A stretch of DNA of 64,000 bases, from the NCBI GenBank assembly GCA_019659055.1, contig JAIFWV010000002.1:26047-90046 (forward strand), in the 5' to 3' direction. Positions 954 to 54,313 of the stretch are shown piece by piece. The translations under genes and the position numbers were made by a program. Origin of the DNA: Candidatus Doudnabacteria bacterium (GTDB lineage: Bacteria; Patescibacteriota; Doudnabacteria; UBA920; O2-02-FULL-48-8). The number at the start of each line of letters is the position of its first letter. The first letter of the stretch is position 1. The notes beneath the pieces are model-generated. The model had not been told where the DNA came from. It saw nothing but the letters and a program-made list of their open reading frames with translations, and ran no database searches.

Positions 954-1595
954 TTAAGTCTTTAAGTAAGTCTTTTCAATTATATCTAAAGCGTCTTTCA
1001 TGATTATCGAATCGTATTTGAGCAAGTCCAAAATGTTGAGCTGGTTGGCCAAGATCACCTTGGCGTTGGACAGATTGCGTCCGGCGCGTTCGACTTCCCT
1101 GTTTGCAGTCGGGATAACCAATAAAAATTTCTTGCCCAATCCGGCGCGGTCGGCAACTCTGGTGAGCATACCGGACAATTCCTTGGATTTAGCGACGTTT
1201 TCCAATTTATCAACTATGACCAATTTCTTGTCTCGGATTTTATCGGACAAAACGGTAAACAATGCTTTGCGAAAAGCCGAGCGGTTCATCTTGAGCGACC
1301 AATCAACTTCGTTGCGCGGACCAAATGTGATGCCGCCATGGCGCCACAATGGTGAGCGGAAGGAGCCGGCGCGAGCGCGGCCCGTGCCTTTTTGCTTCCA
1401 TGGCTTCTTACCAGTACCTGCGACTTCGCCGCGGGTCTTGGTATGAGCAATAGAACGACGGGCATTGTTTCTCTGGGTGCGCACAGCGGCCCAAACCAGA
1501 TTTGCATCCAATTCTTCCAAACCAAAAATCTTTGGATTCAAATCCAGATCGGAAACTTTTTCGCCAGATTGATTATAAACTGCGGCTTTGTTCAT
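954..1595 (-). CDS. rplD: 50S ribosomal protein L4
   Basis: 213-aa translation with L4 motifs (GTGRARAGS.RSPLWRHGG, KFLLVIP); start ATG overlaps upstream stop (ATGA). Confidence 0.9.
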   Translation of the reverse strand: MNKAAVYNQSGEKVSDLDLNPKIFGLEELDANLVWAAVRTQRNNARRSIAHTKTRGEVAGTGKKPWKQKGTGRARAGSFRSPLWRHGGITFGPRNEVDWSLKMNRSAFRKALFTVLSDKIRDKKLVIVDKLENVAKSKELSGMLTRVADRAGLGKKFLLVIPTANREVERAGRNLSNAKVILANQLNILDLLKYDSIIMKDALDIIEKTYLKT

Positions 1596-2272
1596 AATTT
1601 CTCAAACTGCTTCATTAATTCCGGGTAGTCGGTAAAGATTCCATCGACTCCCAGTTTCCTCATTCGTTCGTACTCGTGCCTATCGTTGACTGTCCAAACC
1701 AAAACTTTTTTTGCCAAAAGTCTCAGGATGAGCATCGTGGCGTAAGAGACATATGTGCTCTGCGGATTTACAGAATAGAGTTTGTCTTTACGAGTCAGAA
1801 AACTAATTATAGTTCGGAGGCTCCATTCGCCTTTGGCGAATATGAGACCCAATTGGACGTTTCCGTCCAAAGTTCTGAACTTCTTCAATACTCCCGGATA
1901 AAACGAGGAGATCAGAACCTTGTGCGGAAAACTTTTTAATTTGGCAAAGACTTGTTCTTCGATGCCATGAACCTTGATCTCGATATTGAGATCGGTATGG
2001 ATCACTGCCAAAACTTCGTCGAGAGTCGGGATTTCGCGGCCGTGTTCGGCGCTGACCCGTTTGATTTCGGACAATACCGTGTCGCGAATCAATCGCGGAT
2101 CACCGAACAATCTCAGCATATCGTGATCGTGGACAACCACGAGTTCGCCGTCTGCCGACTTGCGAACATCGAGTTCCAACATATCGGCACCCATGCTCTC
2201 TGCTTTTTGAAAAGAACGGATTGTGTTCTCCGGTTCGGTACCCGAAGCGCCCCTGTGCGCTATAATCTGCAT
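1592..2272 (-). CDS. glycerophosphodiester phosphodiesterase (GDPD/UgpQ family)
   Basis: 226 aa; N-terminal IAHRGASG..PENT and ELDV..DGELVVVHD motifs typical of GDPD; lies between rplC and rplD with TAAATG and ATGA junctions. Confidence 0.8.
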   Translation of the reverse strand: MQIIAHRGASGTEPENTIRSFQKAESMGADMLELDVRKSADGELVVVHDHDMLRLFGDPRLIRDTVLSEIKRVSAEHGREIPTLDEVLAVIHTDLNIEIKVHGIEEQVFAKLKSFPHKVLISSFYPGVLKKFRTLDGNVQLGLIFAKGEWSLRTIISFLTRKDKLYSVNPQSTYVSYATMLILRLLAKKVLVWTVNDRHEYERMRKLGVDGIFTDYPELMKQFEKL

Positions 2273-3590: not shown

Positions 3591-4790
3591 TTATTTGGTG
3601 ATTTTGAGTACTACACCGGCACCGACTGTGTGTCCGCCTTCGCGGATAGCAAAGCGCTGTTTTTCTTCCAATGCAACCGGGGAAATCAGCTTAACTTTGA
3701 TAGAAACTGTATCGCCTGGCATGACCATTTCCTGGCCGGCTGGCAATTCAACTTCGCCTGTAACGTCTGTGGTTCGGATGTAGAATTGAGGCTTGTAGCC
3801 CTTGAAGAACGGAGTGTGTCGTCCGCCTTCTTCCTTGTTGAGGACATAGACTTCAGCGTCAAATTCGGTATGAGGAGTAACTGAGCCTGGCTTGCAGAGT
3901 ACTTGTCCGCGCTCGACTTCGTCCTTCTTGGTTCCTCGCAAAAGCACACCCGCATTGTCGCCTGCTCGGCCTTCGTCGAGTTGCTTGTTGAACATTTCGA
4001 TACCAGTGACTACGGTCTTGGCGGTTGGGCGCAAACCCATGATTTCGACTTCATCGGAAACTTTGACAATACCGCGCTCGATACGGCCAGTAACAACTGT
4101 GCCGCGGCCTTCTATGGAGAAGATGTCTTCGATAGCCATAAGGAATGGCTTGTCGATGTCGCGCACTGGTTCTGGGATTTGAGCATCCAAAGTTTCGAGA
4201 AGTTTAACAATGGAATCAACACCGGCCTGGTCGCCCTGAATCGCTTTGAGAGCGCTTCCGCGGACGATGGCAGTAGTTTTGCCGTCGAAACCGTATTTGG
4301 TGAGCAGGTCGCGGACTTCTTCTTCGACGAGGTCGAGAAGTTCCTGGTCTTCCACCATATCTACCTTGTTGAGGAAGACGACGATTGCTGGCACGCCAAC
4401 TTGCTTAGCCAAGAGGATGTGTTCGCGGGTCTGAGGCATTGGGCCGTCGACTGCGTTCACAACCAAAATTGCACCGTCCATCTGGGCGGCACCGGTGATC
4501 ATGTTTTTGACATAATCAGCGTGGCCCGGACAGTCGACGTGTGCGTAGTGTCTGTTTGGGGTTTCGTATTCGACGTGTGAGGTCGAGATGGTCAAGATCT
4601 TAGTTGGATCTCGGCGACCTTGTGATTCTGACGCCTTGGCGACTTCATCGTAAGGGACGAACTTTTTGGTCCAGCCCTTATCGAAGGAGACTTTGGTCAA
4701 AGCGGCAGTGAGAGTGGTTTTGCCGTGGTCGACGTGGCCGATTGTACCCACGTTGACGTGCGGCTTGGAACGTTCAAATTTGTCTGCCAT
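3591..4790 (-). CDS. tuf: elongation factor Tu
   Basis: [22 protein letters not shown] GTPase motifs; start taken at [15 protein letters not shown] (4790) rather than track 4808. Confidence 0.95.
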
Positions 4791-5050
4791 TTGTATAGCC
4801 TTTCGCAATTTTTAAGTGGTATCCAGTCAGTCCCGAGCCTTAACCGAAAGCCCTATCGACCAGGCTTTTAGCCAAGTTCAGGATGACGCCAATCTTAAAA
4901 AACGCTTAAAATTAATTTTAATGCCATAAGATTATAAAGGATTTGTGAGGCTTTGTAAAGGGTCAGAAGCCTTGTGGATAAGTGGCCAAAAACCAGCCAT
5001 TTCAACGGCTCACACCCCGTGTGAGCCGTTGAACCAAACTGCACCTATCA

Positions 5051-5079
5051 TTGACTTAGCAAAGAAATTCTGCTAAAAT
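5051..5079 (+). promoter_or_regulatory. sigma70-type promoter (TTGACT-17-TAAAAT) for gmk-like transcript
   Basis: TTGACTtagcaaagaaattctgcTAAAAT; about 250 nt upstream of the gmk ATG. Confidence 0.55.
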
Positions 5080-5085
5080 GTCTTC

Positions 5086-5328
5086 GATTCCTGATCCGCT
5101 CTCACGGACCGAGGAAGGGGGCTTTCTAACTACCGGGTGAAGCTACGAGACAGGGGGTATCGTAGCCGGATCTGGTTTTGGCACCAATGGTTGGTGTAGT
5201 TGGAAGTCTATAACCCCCTTCATTCTTTTCATGAGAATAAGGGTGTGAATCAGCCGTCTACTTCGATTAGTGACGGTCTTTTTTATGCCAATTTTGGTCC
5301 TCCCGACACTCGGACTACAGGTGCTTAA
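5086..5328 (+). ncRNA. long structured 5' leader ending in terminator-like hairpin (candidate riboswitch/attenuator, class unidentified)
   Basis: nested complementary segments (GGGGGTAT../..ATAACCCCC, ACCAATGG/TTGGT) and CCGTC..GACGG hairpin followed by TCTTTTTTAT at 5254-5290, between promoter and ATG 5329. Confidence 0.3.
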
Positions 5329-5912
5329 ATGCAATTTTTTTGCTATAAATACCTTACGGCAAAAACAAAACATTTGGTCTTTGGATTCGTGGGAGACTCC
5401 GGGTCTGGCAAATCCACTCTCATGATCGAACTTCTCAATTTCTTCCCGCATCTTGAGATAATCAAATCCACTTCCACCAGAGCGCGGCGCGACGACACTG
5501 ACGATTTGTTCTACAAGCTGGTCGGTATGGATTATATGGACAATCCCGAAAACCAGAAGAATTTCCTCAATCACGAAATCTATGCGGGCAATCATTACGT
5601 CTACGAGCGCTCTATCCTCGACCAGGTTCTGCGCTCACATTGCGGCATGTTTGCCATCATCGAATCCGCTGTGCCAAAAATCCAGAAAGCAGGATACGAT
5701 GTACGACTCATCAAAGTCGTCCCAATTGTGACTGGGATTTGGATCGGACTCGAGAGCGCCAGAGCGAAGACCAGCTTCGCGCCACGCAAGGCGGATTGGT
5801 TTTTGATCTCGTTATCGAAAACTCATTTCGGCCCGGCGGATTGGAACAATCAGTCGAGACTGCCGCAAAATTCATTCAGGACCAAATCCACGGGCACCAC
5901 CCCGGGAATTGA
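5329..5912 (+). pseudogene. gmk: guanylate kinase (gmk-like) with apparent +1/-1 frameshift near nt 5725-5745
   Basis: frame 1 gives P-loop GDSGSGKST and STSTRARR (TTRxPR motif); alignment to Gmk continues in another frame (track ORF 5640..5912: LDRTRERQSEDQLRATQGG..FDLVIEN..); frame-1 tail after the shift is low-complexity. Confidence 0.6.
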
Positions 5913-5960
5913 CAGAACCCCCCAGAACAGGTATAAATAGGAATCATTAACGGAGGATTC

Positions 5961-6227
5961 ATGAGTATCTTGGATCGACTCTTTGATTTTTTCCATCGTA
6001 CCGAGGACACCCGGGCCACTCCTGTCTTGGAATACGTGGCTCCTCCCCGCGAAGTCACCAAGTACCATCTGCACGACCACGAGTTCGAGGGTCTGGTCGA
6101 TCACTACTTGGCAGACGAGTACTACATCGACGTGGAGCGGGCGAAGCTCCACCTCAAAGACTGCAAGGAATGCACCGACGTTTTCTGCGGTTTCTGGAAT
6201 CGCATGAGACGGCAGAAGGTCGCCTAA
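5961..6227 (+). CDS. hypothetical small His/Cys-containing protein (88 aa)
   Basis: SD GGAGGA 7 nt before ATG; His-rich HLHDHEFEGLVDH and C-terminal CKECTDVFC; stop overlaps next start (TAATG). Confidence 0.55.
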   Translation: MSILDRLFDFFHRTEDTRATPVLEYVAPPREVTKYHLHDHEFEGLVDHYLADEYYIDVERAKLHLKDCKECTDVFCGFWNRMRRQKVA

Positions 6228-6502
6228 TGTCTCGCTACAGAGGACTAGGACGAGCTCGAACCCGGGCCAACCGGGGCGCGCGCGAGAGCGCAGACATACG
6301 GTTACTAGAGGAAGAATACCTGAGACTCCATCCCGAGATCCGGGGGTTCGAGGACAGAATCTGCTTAATAGCCCCGAACTGCCCTGATTTTGATCGCAGA
6401 CTCCCGTTCAGAATTCCGTACTGCGATCCCCATGTGCGTGAGTGCGAAAAATGCCAGGAAAAAATGGCAGCATCCGGATTCCCATATCCAAAGGAGCGTT
6501 AA
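6227..6502 (+). CDS. hypothetical Cys-rich small protein (91 aa, zinc-ribbon-like)
   Basis: ATG overlaps upstream stop (TAATG); Cys pattern C..NC...C..HVREC..EKC; basic Arg-rich N-terminus. Confidence 0.5.
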   Translation: MSRYRGLGRARTRANRGARESADIRLLEEEYLRLHPEIRGFEDRICLIAPNCPDFDRRLPFRIPYCDPHVRECEKCQEKMAASGFPYPKER

Positions 6503-6741
6503 TGCCAGTCACAAAACTTGCTTCGGCGGTAAACGCGATCACCATCCCAGCCGATGACCTGGTTCAGACGGTCAGTGAGCACGAGAGACTGGGCGAGCGC
6601 ATAATCGCTACAGTCCCAGGAGGACTTCAACTCAAAAGGACCGGAAGCGGGCGCAATAGCGTGATCGAAGTCATCCCGACTTCTTTCACCCTCATTCTCG
6701 GGCAAGAGAGACACCGCGACTACCGAAACGGTGAATCCTAA
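6502..6741 (+). CDS. hypothetical protein (80 aa)
   Basis: perfect AAGGAG 6 nt upstream, TAATG coupling to previous ORF; followed by terminator. Confidence 0.5.
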   Translation: MPVTKLASAVNAITIPADDLVQTVSEHERLGERIIATVPGGLQLKRTGSGRNSVIEVIPTSFTLILGQERHRDYRNGES

Positions 6742-6751
6742 TCGCTATCGC

Positions 6752-6786
6752 GGCGTGGACGTACATACGTCCCGCCGCTTTTTTTA
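6752..6786 (+). terminator. rho-independent terminator
   Basis: GGCGTGGACGT-ACAT-ACGTCCCGCC hairpin then TTTTTTTAT. Confidence 0.65.
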
Positions 6787-6854
6787 TTAATTGCTTGCGC
6801 TCGCTAGCATTATTTTTATTTGTTAAAATATTTTCAAACCCTACGGAGGCCCTA

Positions 6855-7076
6855 ATGGATTTTCAGGAGAAATCCGTCAGCTTTCATCAGTTCACTGCAG
6901 ACGTGGACAAGCTGAGAATTTTGATGATGTGCTATCGGACTTGCGAACAACCCAAAAACACCAACCCTGACACTGACGAGGTCGTAAACGCTTACAATCA
7001 TATGTTTGGGCATGGCGGACGATGCCAAGAATGCTTCCCCTATGCCGTCAAGCTACTCAGTCTCCTGGAAAATTAA
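6855..7076 (+). CDS. hypothetical zinc-ribbon-like small protein (73 aa)
   Basis: SD GGAGG 5 nt before ATG; CYRTC ... CQEC Cys pairs. Confidence 0.5.
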   Translation: MDFQEKSVSFHQFTADVDKLRILMMCYRTCEQPKNTNPDTDEVVNAYNHMFGHGGRCQECFPYAVKLLSLLEN

Positions 7077-7077
7077 A

Positions 7078-7112
7078 AACGGCGCGCCTCCTTTTTTGAA
7101 GGCCGCCGTTTT
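7078..7112. terminator. bidirectional terminator (small ORF on plus strand; fusA on minus strand)
   Basis: AACGGCGCGCC-loop-GGCCGCCGTT hairpin flanked by A-run upstream and TTTCGTTTTCC downstream. Confidence 0.6.
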
Positions 7113-7239
7113 CGTTTTCCAATTATTTATTTAGCGAGGCATTTGTAAAAGCAACCCGCGGAGGACGACGGTCCGAGCGCGTAGGCCGAAATTTTAGCAA
7201 AAATTTACGGCCGGTGCTTTTACAAATATGCCGAGCGCC

Positions 7240-9372
7240 TTATTGTCCGACTTGTCCCACGCGGACTTTGCCAGATTCGCCGATAATTTTCTCGGCCACA
7301 TTTCTTGGCACTTCCTCGTATTTGAGAAACTCCATAGTGTAGGAAGCCTGTCCCTGGGACATGGATCGGATTTGGGTGGCGTAGCCAAACATTTCCGCCA
7401 GCGGGACTTCTGCGTCAATTATTTTGAGGTTGCCGCGATCGGTCATTTCAAGGATTTTGCCGCGCTTGGCGTTGAGGTCGCCGATGACATCGCCCATGGC
7501 TGATTCCGGGGTCGTGACCTCGACTTTCATAATCGGTTCGAGAATGATTGGGTTGGCTTTTTTCACGGCGGACTGGAAAGCCATGGATCCGGCAATTTTG
7601 AAAGCGATTTCAGAAGAGTCAACCTCGTGGTAACTGCCATCGTAGAGCGTGGTTTTGACGTTGAGCACTGGGAATCCGGCAATAACGCCGCGATCCTCTG
7701 CTTCCGCAATACCTTTTTCTATCGGTTTGATATATTCCTTGGGTACGGTGCCGCCAACGATTTCATTTATAAATTCATTGCCTTTCTCTGGATCATCCTG
7801 CGGTTCGATTCGTATCCAGACGTGACCATACTGACCCTTACCGCCGGTCTGGCGGATGTATTTGCCTTCGGCATCAGCTTTACCGCGAATAGTTTCTTTG
7901 TAAGCAACTTGGGGTTTACCAACATTGGCCTCGACTTTGAATTCGCGCTTCATGCGGTCAACCAAAATTTCCAAGTGCAGTTCGCCCATACCCGCAATCA
8001 AAGTTTGCTGGACTTCTTCGTCAGTGCTGACTCGGAAAGTCGGATCCTCTTCTGCGAGTTTTTGCAAAGCCAAACCCATCTTTTCTTGATCGGCTTTGGT
8101 CTTTGGTTCGATAGCAACCGAAATAACCGGTTCTGGGAATTTGATCTTCTCAAGCATTACAGGGAAATCGACATCACAAAGCGTATCGCCAGTGAAGGTA
8201 TCTTTCGGCCCGACCAGGGCCGCGATATCGCCGGAATGAACTTCCTTAACCTCTTCGCGGGAATCGGCATGCAATCGGACCAAGCGGCCAACACGTTCTT
8301 TGTTTCCGGAACGGGCGTTTAGAATATATGAACCGGCTTGAAGGACTCCTGTGTAAACTCGGAAGAACGCCAATTTGCCGACAAAGGGGTCAGTTGCGAT
8401 TTTGAATGCCAAGGCTACAAACTTGTCGCTATCGTTTGGAGTCAGTAAAATTTCTTCTTGAGTCTTGGTATTGATAGCCTTAATCGGGGGCTTATCTAAC
8501 GGTGAGGGCAGGTAGTTCACTACCGCATCCAAGAGCGAAGTCACGATAAGTCCGCGTCCATCTCCGCCGAGGACTGGGAAAAACTTTCCCGACAAGGTCG
8601 AGGTTCGGATAGCTTTTATCAACTCCTGGTCGCTGATTTCCTCGCCGGCCAAATATTTTTCCATGAGAGCATCATCTGATTCGACAACTTTTTCTATGAG
8701 CTTCAACCGGTACTCGCGCGCTTTCTCAAGCATGTCGGCTGGGACTTCGCCTTCGGTAAAGGTCTTGTCCTTGTGCTCCTTGTATGTATAGGATTTCATC
8801 TTCACCAAATCGACAATGCCGTTGATGTCTTTTTCAAACCCAATCGGTAGTTGGATCGGGAAGGCGTTGGGCGACAAGCGCTTGTGAATCGCATCCAAAG
8901 ATTTATAAAAATCGCCGCCAGTCTGGTTGATCTTGTTTATAAAGCACATGCGGGGTACTGCGTATTTGTCGGCTTGGCGCCAGACGGTCTCGGACTGAGG
9001 TTCTACACCCATCTTACCGTCGAAGACCACGACTGCGCCGTCGAGCACGCGTAAAGATCGCTCGACTTCGACTGTGAAGTCCACGTGTCCGGGGGTGTCG
9101 ATGATGTTGATGCGGTGAGTGTCGGGAGATTTACCGCCAGATTGCAGTGTCCGCGACCAAAAGCTGGTGGTGGCCGCCGCGGTAATCGTGATGCCGCGTT
9201 CGCGTTCCTGCTCCATCCAGTCCATGGCAGTGTTGCCTTCGTGGACTTCGCCAATCTTGTGGATCTTGCCGGTATAAAACAAAATCGACTCGGTAGTGGT
9301 GGTCTTACCGGCATCGATGTGGGCAATAATCCCGATGTTTCTGGTTTGTTCTAGGCTGTATTCTCTAGGCAT
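7240..9372 (-). CDS. fusA: elongation factor G
   Basis: 710 aa; [21 protein letters not shown] motifs and full EF-G domain order. Confidence 0.95.
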
Positions 9373-14105: not shown

Positions 14106-17100
14106 TCAGAATAACGCCGGCTTGCCTAGACTTGCCACCACCGAGACATAACGGTCCTCGTTGAGGATCTCAGACAGGGAATGCGCGGGCATTGCTCCAT
14201 TGAACAGATACCCTTGCGCGCGATTGCACATATTTTCCCGCAAAAACGCCAGCTGATTTTTGGATTCCACTCCTTCGGCTGTTATTTCCATGTTGAGACT
14301 GCGCCCGAGCGTGATAATTGATTTCGCAATTGCCGAATTTTGCATATCCATGGGGATACCCTTCATGAAAGTTCTCTCGATTTTGAGCATATCCACCGGA
14401 AAATGTTTGATGTAGCGCAAAGACGAATACCCGGTCGAAAAATCATCGAGGCAGAATCTGACTCCCCGTTCGCGCAAGGCATTCATGATGCTTGTAATAT
14501 TGTCTTCATTTTCGGCCAGGATTGATTCTGTAAGTTCGAGTTCCAGAAAACGAGCGTCAAATTTGGATTCTTCGATAGCGCCGATGAGGACATTCTCAAA
14601 ATTCTTCTGCTTGAATTGCCGGGCCGAAAGATTGATAGCCATAATCATTTTGTAGCCGGCATCGTGCCACATCTTCCCCTGCTTCAAGGCTTCTTTGAGT
14701 ATCCATTCGCCAATGGGTTCTATGAGTCCGTTGGCTTCTGCCAATGGGATAAACCGGTCAGGCAAAATCAGCGTCATATCCGGCCTCTGCCAACGGATAA
14801 GCTCTTCTGTCCCAACTATTTTACCTGTGGCGACATCTACTTGCGGCTGGTAAAACAGCACGAACTCCTGGTTTTCCAGAGCGTGTCGAAGCTTGGAATC
14901 CAGAGTTAGCCGTTCGTAGGCCGCCGAATTCATTGTGGTCGTATAGAACTGATAGGTATTGCGGCCGTATTCCTTGGCGCGATAAAGTGCGGCCTCGGCA
15001 TTTCTGAGCAGACTCGAGGCCTCTCTGCCGTCGTATGGATAAAGGCTGATACCAATACTCGGGCTGATAAACAGCTCGTGCTGGTCAAGGTAAAACGCGG
15101 GCCGGAAATCCTCCAAAATTTTATTGGCAAGCTTAGCCGCTTCTTCTTCGGTCTGGATATCGGCCATAAGGATTGCAAATTCATCACCGCCAAGCCGAGC
15201 TAAGACATAATCTTCTTTGACACAGCTGCGTACGCGCAAAGCGACTTCCTGAATCAGGCGATCGCCCAAAGCATGACCCAGAGATTCGTTTATTTGCTTA
15301 AATCGATCGAGATCGAGGAGCATAATTCCCAAATTCTGACCGTTGGCTTCGGCATCCGAAATAGCTTGCGCGAACCGTTCATTGAGGTAAGTCCGATTGG
15401 GCAGATCCGTGAGAGTGTCGTGATGGTACTGATACTGCAGGTTTTCTTCCGCGAGCCGGCGTTCGGTGATATCGCGAAAGTTTACAACCATGGCCCGAAT
15501 ACTCGGGTGGTGCAAAAGATTTGTACCTACTCCCTCAATCCAGCGATAGTTGCCATTGGCATGGCGGCAGCGGTATTGTGCGGTAATCGTCTGGTCCGGC
15601 TTGCGCAAGCTCGTGGCCAGAAGCTCGGCCACCAGCGGGGCGTCGTCGGGGTGCACTATATTTCTAATATTTACTCCGTGCATTTCTTCCGATGTGTATC
15701 CAAGCATACGCTGGACCGGCATGGTCGCAAATGTCAGGACACCGTTGGCATCGAGGAGTGCCACGCCGTCTGAGGTGTTATCGATAATAGCGCGGTACCG
15801 CTCTTCGCTGACCTGAAGTTTCTGTTCCATGAATTTACGCTCACGGATCTCTATCTGAGCTTCCCGATAGAGTAAGGCGTTGTCGATGGCCATGCCGGCG
15901 CGTCGGCCGAGCTCTTCGAAGAATTTAAGATCCTTCTCCTCATAGCGCTTGTTGGACTCTGCCCAGATCAAGGACATGACCCCGAAGACTTTATCGCGTG
16001 CGACCAAAGGCACCATAAGTGCGGACTTAATACCGAGCTTGGACGTGAGTTCATAATGCTCCGGATCGCGCGAACTGGCGCGGAGCATGTCGTCGGTAAT
16101 CTCCTTATAGATTTCAGCTTTTCCGGTGGTGATGATTTTCCAGGTCCCACGCTCCGGATCTTTGTGATTCGGATACTTTCTTGCCAATTCCACAGCAAAT
16201 TTTATTTTTTCCGGGTCCACGTGTTCTACTGCGACTTGCTTTGTGTTTTCGCCGTCAGGAGTGAGAATTTCGATTCCGCACCAATCGGCAAATTTGGGGA
16301 CGGCTAATTTCGCCACTCGCGCCAGTGTTGTCTCAAAATCCAAAGACGATGATAATAATTTCGTAGCTTCGGATAAAAACACGACCCCTTCGTCGGCTTG
16401 TTTGGATTTCGTAATGTCGCGAGCCACGGCCGAGGCACCCACGACTTTGCCGGAATTATTTTTTATTGGCGAGACCGCCACGGATATGTCCAAAATCCGT
16501 CCGTCTTTGGTTTTCCTTTTGGTCTCATAGTGATTAACACCCCTGCCGAGTCGGATCTGCGCCAAAAGCATTCTGGTGTCATCCGGAAAGCCTTCCGGAA
16601 CCAAGACTGAAACATTCTTGCCGAGAATTTCTTGTTCGGTATAGCCATATATCCTTACCGCTCCTTTATTCCAGCTCGTGATGTTGCCTTCTAGATCTTT
16701 GCCCATGATCGCGTCCTCAGACGATTCAACTATAGCTACAAGTTTGAGATTGGCCTCGAGGGCGGTTTTTTGAGGAGTGATGTCGCGCAGATACACAGCA
16801 AGGCCGTCTTTGGCGGGGTACACTGAGGATTCTATCCACTTCGGCATATTTCCCGGTTCAGAAAATTTTTCTTCGTAACGCAGGGATTTATTTTCCAACA
16901 AGGCTTCCTGCAGTTTGGAATAGGTCGCGGTCTGCATTGCGTTTGGAAATTCCTGAAAAATATTTTTTCCCAGAAGCTCGCTCCGGTTCCGCTGTAACAA
17001 CTGTTCGGCTTGGCGGTTGACGTATGTAAAGTTCCAATCTTTATCCAACGCAAAAAAGCCGTCAGTAATACTTTCGAGAATATGCTGGTTCCGGCGATTG

Positions 17101-17600
17101 ATTTTTTCGTATTCAGACTGTATATTTCTCTGCGCTGTGATATCTCGAAAAATACTCACAGCAAATCGGACCTTGCCCTCGCTGTCCCTGATGGGGCGAG
17201 CTTTGATTTCTGACCAAAACTCTGATCCCGTTTGCCGATTTCTGGAAAGTACAATCTTACTCGGTACCTCGAGCCCGTCCAGAGCAGATCTGGCTGGCAG
17301 GTCATTGAAGCTCACCGGGTTCCCGTTCTCATCAAAAATCTCAAACTTGTTTATGGCGTCGGAAACTAAATGATTTATAATCTCGGATTTATTATTGAAA
17401 TCCATAAGGGCGACCGCTGCGGCATTGGCAAAAACCACCCGGCGGCTTTCATCCTGAACGATTACGCCGTCGGCAATAGCCTGAAAAATTTCTTCTAAGT
17501 TTTGTTTCGCGTCGAGTTGCCCGAAAAGCCGCCCTAAAGTTACATCCGAATTTTGCTGATTAGTGTCTGAAATCATACGATAAACCTTCATTGTGGCCAC
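14106..17600 (-). CDS. multi-domain signalling protein: PAS/GAF sensor domains + GGDEF diguanylate cyclase + EAL phosphodiesterase
   Basis: 1164 aa; several PAS-like repeats, GAF-like segment, RLGGDEFAIL (GGDEF), EELIRWQ and downstream EAL-domain conserved blocks. Confidence 0.85.
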   Translation of the reverse strand: MATMKVYRMISDTNQQNSDVTLGRLFGQLDAKQNLEEIFQAIADGVIVQDESRRVVFANAAAVALMDFNNKSEIINHLVSDAINKFEIFDENGNPVSFNDLPARSALDGLEVPSKIVLSRNRQTGSEFWSEIKARPIRDSEGKVRFAVSIFRDITAQRNIQSEYEKINRRNQHILESITDGFFALDKDWNFTYVNRQAEQLLQRNRSELLGKNIFQEFPNAMQTATYSKLQEALLENKSLRYEEKFSEPGNMPKWIESSVYPAKDGLAVYLRDITPQKTALEANLKLVAIVESSEDAIMGKDLEGNITSWNKGAVRIYGYTEQEILGKNVSVLVPEGFPDDTRMLLAQIRLGRGVNHYETKRKTKDGRILDISVAVSPIKNNSGKVVGASAVARDITKSKQADEGVVFLSEATKLLSSSLDFETTLARVAKLAVPKFADWCGIEILTPDGENTKQVAVEHVDPEKIKFAVELARKYPNHKDPERGTWKIITTGKAEIYKEITDDMLRASSRDPEHYELTSKLGIKSALMVPLVARDKVFGVMSLIWAESNKRYEEKDLKFFEELGRRAGMAIDNALLYREAQIEIRERKFMEQKLQVSEERYRAIIDNTSDGVALLDANGVLTFATMPVQRMLGYTSEEMHGVNIRNIVHPDDAPLVAELLATSLRKPDQTITAQYRCRHANGNYRWIEGVGTNLLHHPSIRAMVVNFRDITERRLAEENLQYQYHHDTLTDLPNRTYLNERFAQAISDAEANGQNLGIMLLDLDRFKQINESLGHALGDRLIQEVALRVRSCVKEDYVLARLGGDEFAILMADIQTEEEAAKLANKILEDFRPAFYLDQHELFISPSIGISLYPYDGREASSLLRNAEAALYRAKEYGRNTYQFYTTTMNSAAYERLTLDSKLRHALENQEFVLFYQPQVDVATGKIVGTEELIRWQRPDMTLILPDRFIPLAEANGLIEPIGEWILKEALKQGKMWHDAGYKMIMAINLSARQFKQKNFENVLIGAIEESKFDARFLELELTESILAENEDNITSIMNALRERGVRFCLDDFSTGYSSLRYIKHFPVDMLKIERTFMKGIPMDMQNSAIAKSIITLGRSLNMEITAEGVESKNQLAFLRENMCNRAQGYLFNGAMPAHSLSEILNEDRYVSVVASLGKPALF

Positions 17601-19669: not shown

Positions 19670-19743
19670 CGGGGTGTAGTATACCGGTAGTACGCGCCCA
19701 TGGGGTGGGTGTAGACAGGGTTCAATTCCCTGCACCCCGACCA
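19670..19743 (+). tRNA. tRNA-Pro (anticodon GGG)
   Basis: manual fold: acceptor CGGGGTG/CACCCCG (C1:G72), D-stem GTAT/GTAC, anticodon stem CGCCC/GGGTG with loop AUGGGGU (U33, GGG, G37), T-arm CAGGG-TTCAATT-CCCTG, discriminator A, encoded CCA. Confidence 0.8.
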
Positions 19744-20002
19744 AATAACGCTCGCATTGATTGTAAATCTACCGGCCGTAAATTTCTGGTGAAATTTCGG
19801 CCTACTCGCTCGGACCAGTCGTCCTGCGCGGGTTAGATTTACAACAAAGCTCGCTAATTTAATATTATTGTAATAAATAATTTAGAAAAAATCATCACTA
19901 TTTTGTGGTGATTTTTTCTTTGCAAAAAAAAGAGGCTCAAGACCTGCACGTATACCGTGCTAGATCGTGAGCCCCGCTTCTGGCCGAGGTGACCAGAGAT
20001 TG

Positions 20003-20185
20003 CTAACTTCCAAGAGGTGGCGCATCCATCCAGTAGTCTCCGACGTATTTCTTGCGCGGCGGCTTTTCCTGGATCGATCCGGGAGAGTTGATTTCCTCGG
20101 TCCGATACGCGAGCTGGTTTCCATCGCGAACCTTGCTACACTGCCGAATCGGAGGATCGTCGCTCTTCTTGTCAGTCTCGTCCAT
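20003..20185 (-). CDS. hypothetical small protein (60 aa), G+C-rich islet
   Basis: SD AAAGGAG 6 nt before ATG at 20185. Confidence 0.4.
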   Translation of the reverse strand: MDETDKKSDDPPIRQCSKVRDGNQLAYRTEEINSPGSIQEKPPRKKYVGDYWMDAPPLGS

Positions 20186-20386
20186 ACACACTCCTTTGGT
20201 GGAAACGTTGTCAGTCGTCGTCGAATGATTCTCCGCGACGGGGGTCGTCCTCACGCAACAGATTGGGATGAATGCGGCATGGCTTGCTGAAAGCGGAGAT
20301 ATCGGTCCTCGCAGACCGGCGGGTCGGTTTCGCCTCAGCCGATCGATGATCCGGAGGTGGTGAGTCTTTTTCTCTCATACTGCTCC

Positions 20387-20644
20387 TTAATCGTCATGAG
20401 GATGACGAAATCCTTCCGGGGGGCTTCGGCGCTGTCTCTTCGGTTTGGGTTCGCCGTCGCGCCGCCGTTTGAGATGTTCGATCCGCAAGCTATAGACCCG
20501 GACGACATCGTCCTGGCCGAGCTTGCCGGCTCGCAAGATTTTCCTCGCCAGCCGTTCGATCTGCGGCTGAATACCGCGGACGGTGTTCAATGACGGCCTG
20601 CGGCGGCCATCTGATTCGAGCGTATGCGCTGACCAGCAGCTCAT
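20387..20644 (-). CDS. hypothetical small basic protein (85 aa), G+C-rich islet
   Basis: SD AAAGGAGA 8 nt before ATG; Arg/Lys-rich, possible nucleic-acid binding. Confidence 0.45.
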   Translation of the reverse strand: MSCWSAHTLESDGRRRPSLNTVRGIQPQIERLARKILRAGKLGQDDVVRVYSLRIEHLKRRRDGEPKPKRQRRSPPEGFRHPHDD

Positions 20645-20646
20645 CC

Positions 20647-20946
20647 TTAGATCTCCTTTTGCGGGATTATCCGAACCAGATCAAACTTGCAGTCCTCGTC
20701 GTCTACCAGCAGCGGTTCGTACCGGAAGAATTCTCCTTGCAGGTACAGTTGCGTATGACCTCCTGGGTCTGAGGCCAGGATGAGGATTTCACCCGGCCGG
20801 CAAAAACGGTTCAGTTCAGTGTGGCAGGTGTAGTTGAGCCCTCTGTTTGATTTGCGTATGCCGTCTGCGGCAATCGCAAGCTGTCGCGAGCGCGTTTCGT
20901 TCTCGTTTGCCGTCTGGCGCGCTAGTCGATCTTGTCGGACAACCAT
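20647..20946 (-). CDS. hypothetical protein (99 aa), G+C-rich islet
   Basis: SD AAGGAGG 8 nt before ATG at 20946 (track ORF begins at TTG 20988). Confidence 0.45.
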   Translation of the reverse strand: MVVRQDRLARQTANENETRSRQLAIAADGIRKSNRGLNYTCHTELNRFCRPGEILILASDPGGHTQLYLQGEFFRYEPLLVDDEDCKFDLVRIIPQKEI

Positions 20947-21294
20947 TGCAGAATCCTCCTTGGACTCGTTTCGAATTTGTAGGTTCAAATTTTGTAAGAC
21001 AAAAATTTATCTCACAGAGTTTGGACCACAAGCGATAAAAAATCCGACCAGGTGGTCGGTTCATCATAGTTTTCGCTTTAAGCTTGGCAATTAGCGTTTT
21101 CTATATGAACCGACATGCACGGGGACGTAATCAAACTTAACCATGCCCAAAATAATTTGGGTGAGTCGAGTCAATGCGTTGTGCAGAAGGTTTTTCATAT
21201 AGTTATCAACAAACCTAGTATAAGTTTAACAATAATAATGCTCTGCGTCAAATGAAAAGACCAAGAACTTGAGTGTTCCTGGTCTTTTTAGCTC

Positions 21295-21492
21295 TCAGAG
21301 CCAAAGCGATTCCGATTTGGGTAGTTGCGCCAACCCGGTCTTGTTTGCAGAAACCGTACCGGCGCTGGGACACCTGGTTTCGTTCATCTGCTCGGCGCTC
21401 TCGTGAACGTCGCCGCAAGCCAGACATTTACGCTTGCCGCTGTCTCCAACCTTGATACTTCCCTTGAGCGTACCACAACTTTGAGCAACCAT
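21295..21492 (-). CDS. hypothetical zinc-ribbon-like small protein (65 aa)
   Basis: SD AAGGAGG 4 nt before ATG; CGTLKG...CLACGDVHE...C; terminator-like hairpin at 21256-21290. Confidence 0.45.
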   Translation of the reverse strand: MVAQSCGTLKGSIKVGDSGKRKCLACGDVHESAEQMNETRCPSAGTVSANKTGLAQLPKSESLWL

Positions 21493-21662
21493 GACTCCTC
21501 CTTAATTCTGACACTTCGTTTCGACTTCCAAGACATGGCAGAAATTTTGTCTCTGACAAGTCATGCAAAGCCAGTAGCGGCCGATCTTTACGCAATTTTT
21601 ATGTGGGCCGATTTCGATGATCCGAATCTCATCTCGTGTCTTCAATCTCCTCCTCCTCTTAA

Positions 21663-21854
21663 TTATTCTTTGTAAGCTTGAACCGCAAGATTGGCTGACC
21701 TTTGAGCATTCTTATCGGACAACCCGACTGATCGCTCGTGGTTGTAGAGCAGCAACCACAAGTCTTTCTTTTTCCCGGACAAGTAATTAGGCGGCCAAGT
21801 TCGGCTCTCACTGACCGAGTTGTTCATTACTCGGAGCGTTGCTAAATCCCACAT
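21663..21854 (-). CDS. hypothetical small protein (63 aa)
   Basis: SD AAGGAGG 6 nt before ATG. Confidence 0.4.
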   Translation of the reverse strand: MWDLATLRVMNNSVSESRTWPPNYLSGKKKDLWLLLYNHERSVGLSDKNAQRSANLAVQAYKE

Positions 21855-21989
21855 CCATGTCCTCCTTACCAGCCGTTTCCGAGATAAATGTTCACCGGCA
21901 GACGATCCGGGTTAAATCGAATTAGATTGTAATCGCCGTACTGACCCTTGCCGAGTTTGTGTATGAGTTTCATCAGATCTCTGGCTAAA

Positions 21990-22109
21990 TTACGGGCGCC
22001 AAAGATCCTCCTGGGCCACGAAATCCAAAAACTCTTCGCAATCGGCGTATTGGGGCGGGCCACACCTTGAACTTGCCATAATCCTAAAAAACGTTAGACG
22101 GTAATGCAT
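21990..22109 (-). CDS. hypothetical micro-protein (39 aa)
   Basis: perfect SD AAGGAGG + 4 nt + ATG at 22109; not in ORF track because <60 aa; overlaps track ORF 21866..22063 (GTG start) in another frame. Confidence 0.3.
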   Translation of the reverse strand: MHYRLTFFRIMASSRCGPPQYADCEEFLDFVAQEDLWRP

Positions 22110-22282
22110 AGTTCCTCCTTGTAAACAAAAACACCGGCCGCAATGGTCGGTGTGAAGTTTCAATTTCAAATGAAAACTTACCCGGCCAGTGCGTCGGTAT
22201 AAAAGTAAAACCAGAATGAATTAGCCGAATGAATTTTCATAGTATAGTAATTATACACCCAAGTGCTGTCGCTTGTCAAAAA

Positions 22283-41744: not shown

Positions 41745-44087
41745 ATGAAAAATGAAAACTCTCCTACAATCCTAGCGGTTTTTGGCGCAACCGGCGATCT
41801 CGTATCGCGCAAACTTTTGCCGGCCATCTATCATCTTTACCGAAACAAACAGCTCCCGAACAAATTTAAAGTCATAGGTGTTGCCCGCCGTCCGTTTTCC
41901 GACGACGAATTTCGCAAGCTTATGAAAAAAGCGCTGGTGGCCAAAATCCGCCGGCCCGAGAAACTCGACGAATTTCTCAAACTCTTCAGCTATCATCAGG
42001 GCCAGTTTGATCAAGACGCAACATACACCTCGCTGAAAAAAGTATTAAATGCTCAGGATACCAAATGGAAAACTCGGGCCAATAAACTTTTTTACCTGGC
42101 CACACCCCCTAATTTCTATGATAATCTCCTACACAAACTTGCCGGCACGGGACTAGCCAAGCAAACCGGAAAAACCTGGGCGCGGATCATTGTCGAGAAA
42201 CCTTTTGGCAAAGACCTAGACCACGCCGAACATCTCGATGTGCTTTTGGGCAAACTATTCGACGAATCGCAAGTCTATCGCATCGACCATTACCTGGCCA
42301 AAGAAGTTTTGCAAAACATCATGGCGTTTCGGTTTGCCAACAATCTTCTGGAAGACGTCTGGAACCGCAAGTACGTGGAAAAGATTGAAATCAAACTCCT
42401 GGAAGAAATCGATGTCGAAGGCCGCGGGGAATTCTATGACGGCGTGGGCGCTCTGCTCGATGTCGGCCAAAACCACCTCCTCCAGGAATTGGCGCTCGTG
42501 ACCATGGATAAACCCGAAAGTTTCCGCACGGTCGATATCCATGCCCGCCGCGCCGAAATCCTGAAAAATCTGCGGCTCATGAATGCTGAGACTGTAAAGA
42601 GTGATACTATGCGCGCACAATACACAGGTTACACGCGGGAACCAGGGGTGGCCCGAAATTCCAACACGGAAACTTATTTCAAGCTTGAGACTTATATCGA
42701 CAACCCTCGCTGGCAAGATGTCCCGATCTACCTGGAAGCGGGAAAAAAATTCCCGGCCAACGAAAAATCAGTCACGGTGACATTCAAGCATCCCGAGCCA
42801 TGCTTGTGCCCACCCGGTGTACATTACCAAAACCGAGTTATCTTCCGCATCCAGCCCACCCCGGGAATCGAAATCGAATTTTGGAGCAAGAAACCCAACT
42901 CCTCGGGCATGGAACTCGAGAAACGCCTTTTGCACTTCAACTACGAATCCGACCCAAGCACGAGATATTTGGCCGAATACGCCAAGCTCATCTCCGACAG
43001 TCTCGCCGGAGATCAGACTTTGTTTGTCTCAAGCCGCGAAGCGATTTCATCGTGGAGATTTATAGACCCGATCGTTAAGGCGTGGAAAGCCAAACTCACT
43101 CCGTTACTCACGTATAAAAAAGATTTTAAAATCCTGTCCGAATTTGATCGACGAATCCGGCCTCAGCGGCCATTTACGAAATTGGCCATGGTCGGCTTGG
43201 GTAAGATGGGCAAGAGCCTCTCGCTGCAACTTTTGGAAAAAGGATTTTCGCTTGTAGCGGCCAATACTCATTCCAAAGACGCGGTGAGCGAACTCTCGCG
43301 CCACTCAAACTTCCACGCTTACCCAACCGACCAGCAAATGCTGGCCAGTCTCCCTAAGCCCCGGCTGGTCTGGCTCATGGTCCCGCACGCGCAAGTCGAT
43401 GAAGTTTTATTTGGCAAAGACGGGTTGGCCAAAATCCTCGACCGCGGCGATATCGTCATCGACTCGGGGAATTCATATTTCAAAGACACTATACGCCGGG
43501 GACGCCTGCTTACGCGCCGCGGCATCGAATTTATGGACCTCGGCTTTTCTGGTGGACCGGGAGGCGCGCGCCGCGGCGGCTGTCTCATGATCGGCGGCAA
43601 AAAATCTCTCTACCAAAAACTCGAGCATGTCTTTGCGAGTATGGCGGCTGACGGCGCCTATAATTATTTCGGCAAGATCGGCGCCGGCCATTTCGTGAAG
43701 ATGGTCCACAACGGCATCGAATACGGCATGATGCAATCGCTGGCGGAAGGCTTTGGCATCCTCAAAGCGTCTCCGTTTCGCCTCAATCTCATCGACGTTG
43801 CGGATATCTATAACCACGGCAGTGTTATAGAGTCGCGGCTCGTGGGCTGGCTTAAGGATGGATTTGAGATGCGCGGCCAAAACCTTAAGGGCATTACCGG
43901 GGTGGTGGGCTACACCGGCGAAGGCGAATGGACTGCCAAGACTGCCAAACAGCTCCGCGTGCCGGCCAAAATTATCGAAGAATCATTTCTCTTCCGGGTG
44001 AAATCAAAAAAGACACAAAGTTTCGTGAGTAAACTTGTGTCATCTATGCGCGAACAATTCGGAGGCCACAGTGTGCGCTCGGTTTGA
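41745..44087 (+). CDS. zwf: bifunctional fusion: glucose-6-phosphate dehydrogenase (N-terminal ~480 aa) + 6-phosphogluconate dehydrogenase, short NAD(P)-binding form (C-terminal ~290 aa)
   Basis: single 780-aa ORF; G6PD motifs VFGATGDL, RIDHYLAKE, EKPFG; after WRFIDPIVKAW a ~30-aa linker then 6PGDH motifs MVGLGKMG, GxAGxGHFVKMVHNGIEYGMMQ. Confidence 0.8.
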   Translation: MKNENSPTILAVFGATGDLVSRKLLPAIYHLYRNKQLPNKFKVIGVARRPFSDDEFRKLMKKALVAKIRRPEKLDEFLKLFSYHQGQFDQDATYTSLKKVLNAQDTKWKTRANKLFYLATPPNFYDNLLHKLAGTGLAKQTGKTWARIIVEKPFGKDLDHAEHLDVLLGKLFDESQVYRIDHYLAKEVLQNIMAFRFANNLLEDVWNRKYVEKIEIKLLEEIDVEGRGEFYDGVGALLDVGQNHLLQELALVTMDKPESFRTVDIHARRAEILKNLRLMNAETVKSDTMRAQYTGYTREPGVARNSNTETYFKLETYIDNPRWQDVPIYLEAGKKFPANEKSVTVTFKHPEPCLCPPGVHYQNRVIFRIQPTPGIEIEFWSKKPNSSGMELEKRLLHFNYESDPSTRYLAEYAKLISDSLAGDQTLFVSSREAISSWRFIDPIVKAWKAKLTPLLTYKKDFKILSEFDRRIRPQRPFTKLAMVGLGKMGKSLSLQLLEKGFSLVAANTHSKDAVSELSRHSNFHAYPTDQQMLASLPKPRLVWLMVPHAQVDEVLFGKDGLAKILDRGDIVIDSGNSYFKDTIRRGRLLTRRGIEFMDLGFSGGPGGARRGGCLMIGGKKSLYQKLEHVFASMAADGAYNYFGKIGAGHFVKMVHNGIEYGMMQSLAEGFGILKASPFRLNLIDVADIYNHGSVIESRLVGWLKDGFEMRGQNLKGITGVVGYTGEGEWTAKTAKQLRVPAKIIEESFLFRVKSKKTQSFVSKLVSSMREQFGGHSVRSV

Positions 44088-52593: not shown

Positions 52594-53187
52594 CTAATCT
52601 AGTTTATCGGCGAAGACAACGAGCCTCTGCGTATAACTCTGGGCGGATTTATCCCAAATACCTTGGCAGGTAATCAGGTTCAAATGCGCTATGCCATCCG
52701 CCGAAGTAAATATTTCTGTAGCGTCTGCATCCGGCGCATAAATCCGGGATTCCCTCACCGCAAATGTGACGACTCCGCCTTGTCCGTCGTGGACCCGAAT
52801 CTGGTCGCCAGGTTTGAGATTATGTAAATTGGCAAACACGGCTGTGGTATTATTTTCTCCATCGACATGGCCGTCGATGACTGCACTACCAATTTCCCCT
52901 GGTCGCGGCCCCAAGCTATACCACGCGGTATCGTCTTGGTCGGCAGGTACATCCATGGACCCGTTTGGTAATATCCCTACTCGTTCGACTGCCGCATCCA
53001 CGCCGATGCTTGGAATGACAATTCGCGCTGGAGCAAGAAATTTCTCTTTGGCCGCGGCATCACTCCATGAGTAGTTAGTGGTAAACTTGATCTTGATGTT
53101 TGGCAAAAACAGCCAGCCGGTTACGGCAATTGCCGCAACCAAAAACCCAAATACTATCAAGCGGGTCTGCAAAAGTCTATTTCTCAC
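52594..53187 (-). CDS. sortase-family transpeptidase
   Basis: N-terminal TM anchor, catalytic His region (IDGHVDG), TLxTC active-site motif (LNLITCQG), conserved Arg downstream. Confidence 0.75.
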   Translation of the reverse strand: MRNRLLQTRLIVFGFLVAAIAVTGWLFLPNIKIKFTTNYSWSDAAAKEKFLAPARIVIPSIGVDAAVERVGILPNGSMDVPADQDDTAWYSLGPRPGEIGSAVIDGHVDGENNTTAVFANLHNLKPGDQIRVHDGQGGVVTFAVRESRIYAPDADATEIFTSADGIAHLNLITCQGIWDKSAQSYTQRLVVFADKLD

Positions 53188-54085
53188 TCGGTACTAGTTT
53201 GCGTGTTTTTATAAGGGCAAAGAGGATGATCGCACCCGTAATTGCAAGCATAGGCAATTGCCATGGGAGTGTGACAACTTGTGTCCCCAATCCTGTGCTG
53301 GGCAAAGTCGGGACCGGTGTAACTGCAGGACTTACTGGGGCCGGTGTAGGCGTTGGAGTTGGAGTTGGTGACGGGGTCGGAGTCACAGCTACCGCACATG
53401 TCGGCCGATTGATGGTATTGGTATCCAGAGTTACCGCGCCGTTGCGGGCCAGTAGTCGGCCGTTGATAAGCGCACCGTTTGTGGCGGTAACGGAAGTCAG
53501 AGCCAAGACACTGCCGGAAAAATTCGAATTAGTACCAAGGGTCGCGGACGAACCGACCTGCCAGAAAACATTGCAGGCTTGCGCGCCATTCACCAGATTT
53601 ACGGAACTCCCGGAAGCTGTGGTCAGAGACGACCCGGACTGGAATACGAATACCGAGTTTGGATTGCCTTGTCCATCCAAAGTCAGAGCGCCGGTAAGTC
53701 CAAGCGACGAAGCAGAATTATATACGCCCGAAACCAGAGTTTGTCCACCCAGATCTCCGGAAACCGTGACAGTGACCGATTGGCCAGCGGCGGCGTTGTA
53801 GGCAGTCGAAAGATCAACTTCGGCTTGAGCAGCGGCGCTATCGGTAATGTGCTGTGTACCGTTAATAGTGCCTGGTGGGAATCCCGTCACCGAAGTTCCT
53901 GGAGACAAACCCAAGTCACCATTTACGATAGTCGAACCTGTGTTTGTGATTGTCGTGGCCCCAAGAACGGCAAAGCTATTGCTCGATCCAAGGTTCAGCG
54001 CCGTGGCGGCCATAGCCTGTCCGGTATTGCCGAATGCAAACGTAAATGCAACCAAAACCATCAAAACCTTGATCATCTTTTTCAT
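53177..54085 (-). CDS. LPXTG-anchored surface protein with ice-binding-like (DUF3494) beta-solenoid domain
   Basis: signal peptide, SNSFAVLGATTITNTG..DLGLSPG..TGFPPG and NVFWQVGSSATLG signature of DUF3494, PT-repeat linker, LPSTG + TM + basic tail; overlaps sortase gene by 11 nt. Confidence 0.7.
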   Translation of the reverse strand: MKKMIKVLMVLVAFTFAFGNTGQAMAATALNLGSSNSFAVLGATTITNTGSTIVNGDLGLSPGTSVTGFPPGTINGTQHITDSAAAQAEVDLSTAYNAAAGQSVTVTVSGDLGGQTLVSGVYNSASSLGLTGALTLDGQGNPNSVFVFQSGSSLTTASGSSVNLVNGAQACNVFWQVGSSATLGTNSNFSGSVLALTSVTATNGALINGRLLARNGAVTLDTNTINRPTCAVAVTPTPSPTPTPTPTPAPVSPAVTPVPTLPSTGLGTQVVTLPWQLPMLAITGAIILFALIKTRKLVPSEK

Positions 54086-54313
54086 ATCCATGCTTTTCTT
54101 TCGTTAATATGCTCTATAAAAAGCAAAAAACCGGACAATTCCGGTCAAAACATAGAATGGGTTCTTGAATGGATTTGGAAGCAGTTTGCTAAATGTATAT
54201 TCATTATACTCCTAGTCGCGATTAAAAGCAAATCGATTAGGTGATCCCAATGGATGAGAGTATAATGAATACAGTCAAAGGTCTAGGAAATGTATTAAAT
54301 AAGGAAAATTTTT

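Follow-up and report, generated by a model that had tools for sequence, protein, structure and literature searches.

Bacterial guanylate kinase (Gmk), as represented by the E. coli enzyme (PDB 1s96/2an9), possesses a GxxGxGKS/T P-loop and an S-x-T-T-R..R NMP-binding motif, both of which are shared by the clade of proteins described here. Conserved tyrosine residues, an arginine-rich LID and a C-terminal helix are likewise present in the bacterial enzyme and in this clade, whereas the residues presumed to contact guanine differ, and the copy found in the window, i.e., the whole stretch of 64,000 nucleotides of Candidatus Doudnabacteria DNA that was analyzed, is moreover frameshifted. Two further kinds of described systems resemble this locus. 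At the programmed -1 sites of dnaX and of IS3-family transposases, two open frames overlap and the downstream part lies in the -1 frame, as is the case in the window; however, the window locus lacks both a slippery heptamer and a stimulatory structure, and its shift is not conserved among orthologs. Frameshift "pseudogenes" that arise as assembly artefacts likewise show a single indel in a well-conserved gene with the downstream frame preserved (Cooley & Wright 2024, PMC11017572), and low coverage, which may also apply to the draft genome studied here, is reported to inflate the number of such spurious pseudogenes (PMC11017572). In contrast to those cases, the homopolymer at the shift site is short and no similar lesion is present elsewhere in it, and artefact status is here a candidate reading. 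No literature linking Doudnabacteria with guanylate kinase was found.

Localization of the frame break

The frame-1 ORF at 5329..5940 (+ strand) encodes 203 amino acids and equals the deposited "hypothetical protein KW788_00930", the gene of which is located on a contig of 93.8 kb. An AGGTG sequence at 5319..5323 (+), located 5 nt before the ATG at 5329, is a putative Shine-Dalgarno motif. The ORF reads MQFF...GDSGSGKST...KSTSTRARR...DVRLIKVVP, followed by 71 codons without similarity to anything. Its 5' part (codons 1-132, frame 1, 5329..5724, +), which was matched by the ortholog HMM as well as by PF00625 and TIGR03263, encodes the P-loop GDSGSGKST, the NMP-binding motif KSTSTRARR and the ..LIKVVP strand. 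A second ORF, 5640..5912, lies in the -1 frame relative to the first and encodes ..PNCDWDLDRTRERQSEDQLRATQGGLVFDLVIENSFRPGGLEQSVETAAKFIQDQIHGHHPGN. This frame carries the 3' part of the gene (codons 133-194, 5724..5912, +), recognized by the same HMM, which encodes NCDWDLDRTRER...FDLVIENSFRPGGLEQSVE...HHPGN and terminates at a natural TGA stop (5910-5912); it comprises the LID helix with its conserved arginines, the last core beta-strand and the C-terminal helix. The remainder of the 203-aa ORF (5725..5940, +; 71 codons and a TAG) is an out-of-frame read-through tail unrelated to the family, and the profile match stops at residue 132.

For this analysis, an HMM was trained on 11 intact orthologs alone, leaving out the window sequence to avoid circularity, and was scored against the 833 six-frame ORFs of the 64-kb window. 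The frame-1 ORF matched profile positions 3-123 (221 bits, E 3.3e-67), and the stop-to-stop ORF in the frame of 5640..5912 matched positions 123-182 (62.7 bits, E 1.6e-18), far above what chance would give, the two matches meeting at one proline, Pro132 (CCA, 5722-5724). No further match beyond a P-loop was obtained with this HMM among all six-frame ORFs of the window. Past Pro132, the frame-1 tail is 7% identical to the orthologs, compared with 45% for the tail in the other frame.

Alignment at the DNA level revealed a single 1-nt gap in the window sequence within 5719..5729 (+), where the window reads GTCGT-CCCAATTGTGACTGG and the orthologous sequence ATCCCCGATCGTGACTGG; the net loss is exactly one base. 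Three orthologs read (A/G)T(C/T)CC(C/G)GA(T/C)CG(T/C)GA(C/T)TGG at the junction, and between the codons of Pro132 and Asp135 there are 5 nt (ATTGT) in the window versus 6 in the orthologs. The run of C at 5721-5723 is C3 in the window and C4 in two orthologs, and the missing base would most parsimoniously be one C of this run (C4 to C3). When one C was added, a 194-aa ORF was obtained that ends where the orthologs end (HHPGN-stop; compare DHHAGN-stop and DHHPRT-stop). In this assembly the gene is thus one base short within 5719-5729, most simply by one C of CCCC, so that translation from the ATG at 5329 leaves the true frame after Pro132 and reads 71 unrelated codons, while the real C-terminal third persists intact in the other frame up to its natural stop at 5910-5912.

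These results agree with a sequence-only reading of the same DNA, which had claimed that a guanylate kinase gene is broken by one single-nucleotide frameshift: the HMM match is split at one position and the DNA alignment contains one 1-nt gap. Its two supporting claims, namely that frame 1 from 5329 carries the P-loop, the STSTRARR motif and Gmk homology up to ..DVRLIKVVP, and that the alignment resumes in the frame of 5640..5912, correspond to the HMM matches at positions 3-123 and 123-182, respectively. The switch had been placed at 5725-5745, an interval that overlaps ours at its low end but had to be refined slightly upstream, to 5719-5729. The statement that the original frame degenerates into low-complexity sequence held in so far as the tail is non-homologous, though it is not strictly low-complexity. 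As for the homopolymer context that the reading had proposed to inspect, the site contains the C3 run at 5721-5723 but no homopolymer of at least 4 nt. Taking the sequence as given, we are nearly certain that the frameshift is real and that a conserved Gmk-family gene lacks one base here, with no programmed recoding involved. The lesion is an ordinary one, and nothing points to a new mechanism.

Assignment to the Gmk family

The restored 194-aa protein scored 29.8 bits against PF00625 (profile 8-144 of 182) and thus passed the gathering threshold of 25.2 bits, whereas the deposited frame-1 ORF alone, with 21.6 bits, remained below it. The sequence GDSGSGKST (residues 22-30) conforms to the P-loop pattern GxxGxGK[ST], residues G22, S24-K28 and T30 being invariant in the clade. 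Against TIGR03263, the equivalog cut-off of which is 160.45 bits, the restored protein reached 37.9 bits and the frame-1 ORF 34 bits. TIGR03263 was matched by all 12 clade members, the best E being 8.5e-18, which is far weaker than a 160-bit score. Since the low score is common to the whole intact clade, it is not a property of the frameshifted copy. By sequence criteria, the gene is a member of a divergent Gmk-family clade from uncultured bacteria and not a canonical Gmk equivalog. The sequence-only reading, which had taken it for canonical gmk, was therefore not upheld on this point (34-38 bits versus 160.45), and its premise that gmk is essential is consequently not established for the window gene.

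When the clade profile was compared with solved structures, guanylate kinases ranked first (1z6g, E 8.5e-14; E. coli 1s96, E 3e-12); the matches to solved Gmk chains ranged from E 8.5e-14 to 1e-8, with 14-21% identity to the solved Gmks. When 1.84 billion cluster representatives were searched exhaustively with HMMER, 32 sequences were returned at E<=1e-30 and 210 at E<=1e-10, mostly 170-190 aa in length and derived from metagenomes; the names and taxa of the more distant family members were uninformative. We take the guanine contacts of yeast Gmk to be E69, S80 and D100, as in the yeast Gmk-GMP structure. According to the HMMER alignment to E. coli Gmk, the equivalent positions in the clade are N/S/T, Y92 and E112. 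Since these presumed guanine-contact positions differ, the substrate of the clade is only presumptive.

Orthologs and genomic position

Searching the protein collection with the two parts joined yielded 11 intact relatives of 180-214 aa (46-69% identity), most of which are named guanylate kinase by JGI. Query coverage was 90-97% in these relatives, compared with 68% for the deposited 203-aa protein. In a multiple alignment, all 11 relatives are single ORFs across the junction, with the consensus LIKVIPDRDWxLxR...FDLxxxNSFKPGGLExSV. Three proteins with truncated profile matches (P0076, P0086 and P0100) were considered as cases of a recurrent shift and rejected, none of them being shifted at this site on inspection; P0086 does terminate in an unusual C-terminal stretch, for which a shift close to the end of the protein may be responsible.

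The Gmk-like gene of the window lies on the + strand between tuf (3591..4808, -) and fusA (7240..9372, -). Two of the intact orthologs (P0003 and P0008) occupy the same place: they too lie on the + strand, are flanked by tuf and fusA and have small unannotated ORFs after them, and the surrounding rpsL-rpsG-fusA / tuf-rpsJ-rplC... cluster is otherwise standard. Because it occupies the same position as its intact orthologs, the window gene is a positional ortholog and not a stray copy, and that none of the 11 orthologs is broken at this syntenic position indicates purifying selection.

The gap between tuf and fusA (4809-7239) consists of about 2.4 kb of opposite-strand genes, comprising the Gmk-like gene and several small ORFs. 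Those at 5961-6227, 6170-6502, 6442-6741 and 6795-7076 gave no Pfam match, and some of the small ORFs contain CxxC-type cysteine pairs. The arrangement of the gap and part of the small-ORF sequence are kept in related Doudnabacteria (contigs L001, L003 and L004). In JGI contigs L004 (5400-7900) and L005 (6200-7300) of a relative, tuf is broken into two or three pieces, and L004 has rplC and rpsJ split as well; L004 and L005 appear indel-rich, unlike the window. An exact DNA pattern spanning the shift site gave 0 matches in metagenome contigs, and the collections searched contained no independent assembly of the same population. Searches for related loci in genome and metagenome contigs returned one distant Daviesbacteria Gmk or nothing, P-loop matches being dominant.

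Predicted structure and consequences of the shift

The restored 194-aa protein was modeled using AlphaFold (AF2) with a pLDDT of 75.7 and a pTM of 0.71. In a Foldseek search of the PDB with this model, the top 27 matches were all guanylate kinases (E 3e-9, TM 0.52-0.60), and the model aligned to guanylate kinase structures over about 190 columns, i.e., over its full length, so the protein is predicted to adopt the Gmk fold. In the model, the out-of-frame part forms the LID helix (residues 139-153), the last core strand (161-166, FDLVIEN) and the C-terminal helix (171-188). The LID helix contains the clade-invariant residues R140, R144, D148 and R151. The three arginines among them and the helix 171-188 are out of frame with the core and are joined to it only after one base is added. 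The deposited 203-aa product, lacking the LID helix, the last core strand and the C-terminal helix, should be inactive; this prediction is made because the missing parts matter in nucleoside-monophosphate kinases generally.

Conservation of the downstream frame

The identity of the window tail to the orthologs (45%) falls within the range seen among the intact orthologs over the same columns (38-52%), and the same holds for the ratio of tail to head identity, 0.68 in the window gene versus 0.59-0.80 in intact orthologs. At 18 tail columns agreed on by at least 10 of the other 11 sequences, the window gene deviates twice (R134C and A147E); most intact orthologs show 0-3 such unique deviations, and the most divergent of them, P0012, shows 6 at 21 columns. 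The window gene keeps every tail residue that is invariant among the orthologs, its 62 tail codons are free of stops, and the frame still closes at the natural stop. Immediately beside the gap, two residues (D133N and R134C) depart non-conservatively from the ortholog consensus, which counts against an assembly error. The downstream frame is thus as conserved as in intact orthologs, which means that the lesion either arose very recently or does not exist in the organism.

Possible origins of the frameshift

Besides an assembly or sequencing indel, the sequence-only reading had listed programmed frameshifting and a decaying second copy among the possible explanations, and neither of these two withstood the analysis. 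In programmed recoding, a -1 ribosomal frameshift or transcriptional slippage would produce the 194-aa kinase, possibly along with the 203-aa product. It is true that neither frame is closed at the junction, that a -1 shift would have the right direction and that the frame-1 read-through of 71 codons is unusually long: when the shifted frame of the window's long ORFs was sampled, 4.6% of the positions had an open run of at least 71 codons. We regard this length as a mild coincidence, and it is probably because the read-through stays open for 71 codons that the ORF was annotated as a normal protein. However, no X XXY YYZ heptamer is present anywhere in 5650-5760, the sole homopolymer of at least 4 nt in that interval is an A5 located about 50 nt upstream, and the C CCA ATT at the shift site permits P-site re-pairing only. 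The region 5716-5815 folds no better than its shuffles (MFE z -0.62; 47 of 200 shuffles equal or better) and gave no Rfam match even at E up to 1. Furthermore, the gene is unshifted at this site in all 11 orthologs and in every more distant family member inspected, and the corresponding shifted frame of the orthologs runs into a stop after 28-29 codons. Recoding can therefore hardly be credited. A slightly less improbable, though still very unlikely, explanation is that the gene is an old, decaying and redundant second copy of gmk. In its favour, the score lies far under the Gmk equivalog cut-off, and a canonical gmk could thus exist elsewhere in the genome. This low TIGR03263 score belongs, however, to the whole intact clade, and the window gene is the positional ortholog of intact genes. 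A decaying pseudogene was to be recognized by several lesions or by relaxed constraint downstream; on this basis it was rejected, there being one lesion and a tail without excess divergence, within the intact range.

There remain an error and a genuine mutation. The chance that the missing base is an indel introduced by assembly or consensus calling in this metagenome-assembled genome is, in our judgment, about even, and the organism would then make a normal 194-aa kinase. The argument is that the gene is conserved and under selection and its tail untouched; the position of the gap in a short homopolymer also favours such an error. As to the kind of data that may be involved, a study of soil CPR bacteria that included curated Doudnabacteria MAGs relied on Illumina HiSeq 150 PE reads assembled with IDBA-UD at about 10-20x coverage, one Doudnabacteria genome having 47.7% GC and 12.9x coverage (PMC8407418). 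The GC content over most of the window is 45-52%. Alternatively, a genuine and very recent 1-nt deletion in the population or in its dominant strain may have inactivated the Gmk-like kinase, a possibility that we take seriously while placing it somewhat below an even chance. It is consistent with the window being otherwise cleanly assembled: among 30 other ORFs of the window that were checked against Pfam, 23 had a match, nearly all of them full-length (SHMT, LeuRS, MetRS, TGT, G6PD-6PGDH, M16 peptidase, TatD and L23 among them), and no sign of disruption was seen in any of the 30. A scan for frame changes (3-periodic Markov model with Viterbi segmentation) indicated no other frameshift in the window, the same-strand frame changes being normal gene boundaries upon inspection by hand and with Pfam, although the method was too insensitive, as it missed the Gmk-like gene as coding; per-frame coding scores agree weakly with the frame switch of this gene. 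The overlapping ORFs 6170..6502 and 6442..6741 were considered as a second frameshift and rejected, as the closest relative's contig has the same two-frame arrangement. With no other broken gene in the window, the assembly is not error-prone in general. Short-read assemblies rarely miscall homopolymers of 3-4 nt, and a run of this length is thus an untypical site for a short-read error. R134C and A147E, which radically alter columns that the other orthologs conserve, also speak for a genuine deletion, as does the common lack of nucleotide synthesis among CPR bacteria, which depend on partners (PMC8407418). On the other side, the lesion is single; the start codon, the Shine-Dalgarno-like motif, the downstream frame, the invariant residues and the natural stop are all in place; the tail is no more diverged than in the intact orthologs, every one of which (11/11) is unbroken at the same syntenic position; and the window holds no second Gmk-like ORF.

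Implications

Irrespective of its origin, the finding calls for an annotation correction: KW788_00930 is a frameshifted Gmk-family gene, the last 71 residues of which do not represent genuine protein sequence. A metabolic reconstruction of the MAG would miss the Gmk-like kinase. If the deletion were confirmed in the reads, it would show, on a small scale, a CPR bacterium in the course of losing a gene. A genuine deletion would mean that the cell depends on another kinase or on guanine nucleotides obtained from its host or community, and such dependence would fit the reductive lifestyle of CPR bacteria. We consider it improbable that the deletion is both real and fixed and that the Gmk-like kinase is in addition the organism's only enzyme of the guanylate kinase family. 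Under these circumstances, a free-standing CPR cell would just have lost the GMP-to-GDP step and would take GDP or GTP from its host or community, i.e., reductive evolution would have been caught in the act at a nearly universal bacterial function.

Other features of the window

Between tRNA-Pro (19670-19743) and a parB-like gene lies a region of about 2.5 kb (19745-22230) in which no frame holds an ORF exceeding 116 aa, and an Rfam search of it returned nothing significant apart from the tRNA. Its first 200 nt include a long and very stable hairpin (about 19750-19855) as well as one resembling a terminator (19884-19919), with an MFE z of about -7.2 on either strand. The region could be a structured RNA that has escaped recognition, or else a remnant, decayed or mobile.

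In the S10 ribosomal-protein cluster, a GDPD (glycerophosphodiester phosphodiesterase) gene at 1592-2272 (-) lies between the presumed rplC and rplD, a position that it also occupies in related contigs; relatives have, in addition, an unannotated ORF of 218-349 aa between rplB and rpsS. The ORF at 14106-17600 (-) encodes a large c-di-GMP signalling protein of 1164 aa with multiple PAS domains together with GAF, GGDEF and EAL domains, a protein that would not be expected in a small CPR-type genome. At 41745-44087 (+), a single 780-aa ORF fuses glucose-6-phosphate dehydrogenase (G6PD_N, G6PD_C) to a 6-phosphogluconate-dehydrogenase-type module (NAD_binding_2 and 6PGD). Finally, at 52594-54091 (-), a sortase gene is located directly downstream of the gene for an ice-binding-like (PF11999) surface protein, the two overlapping by 11 nt.
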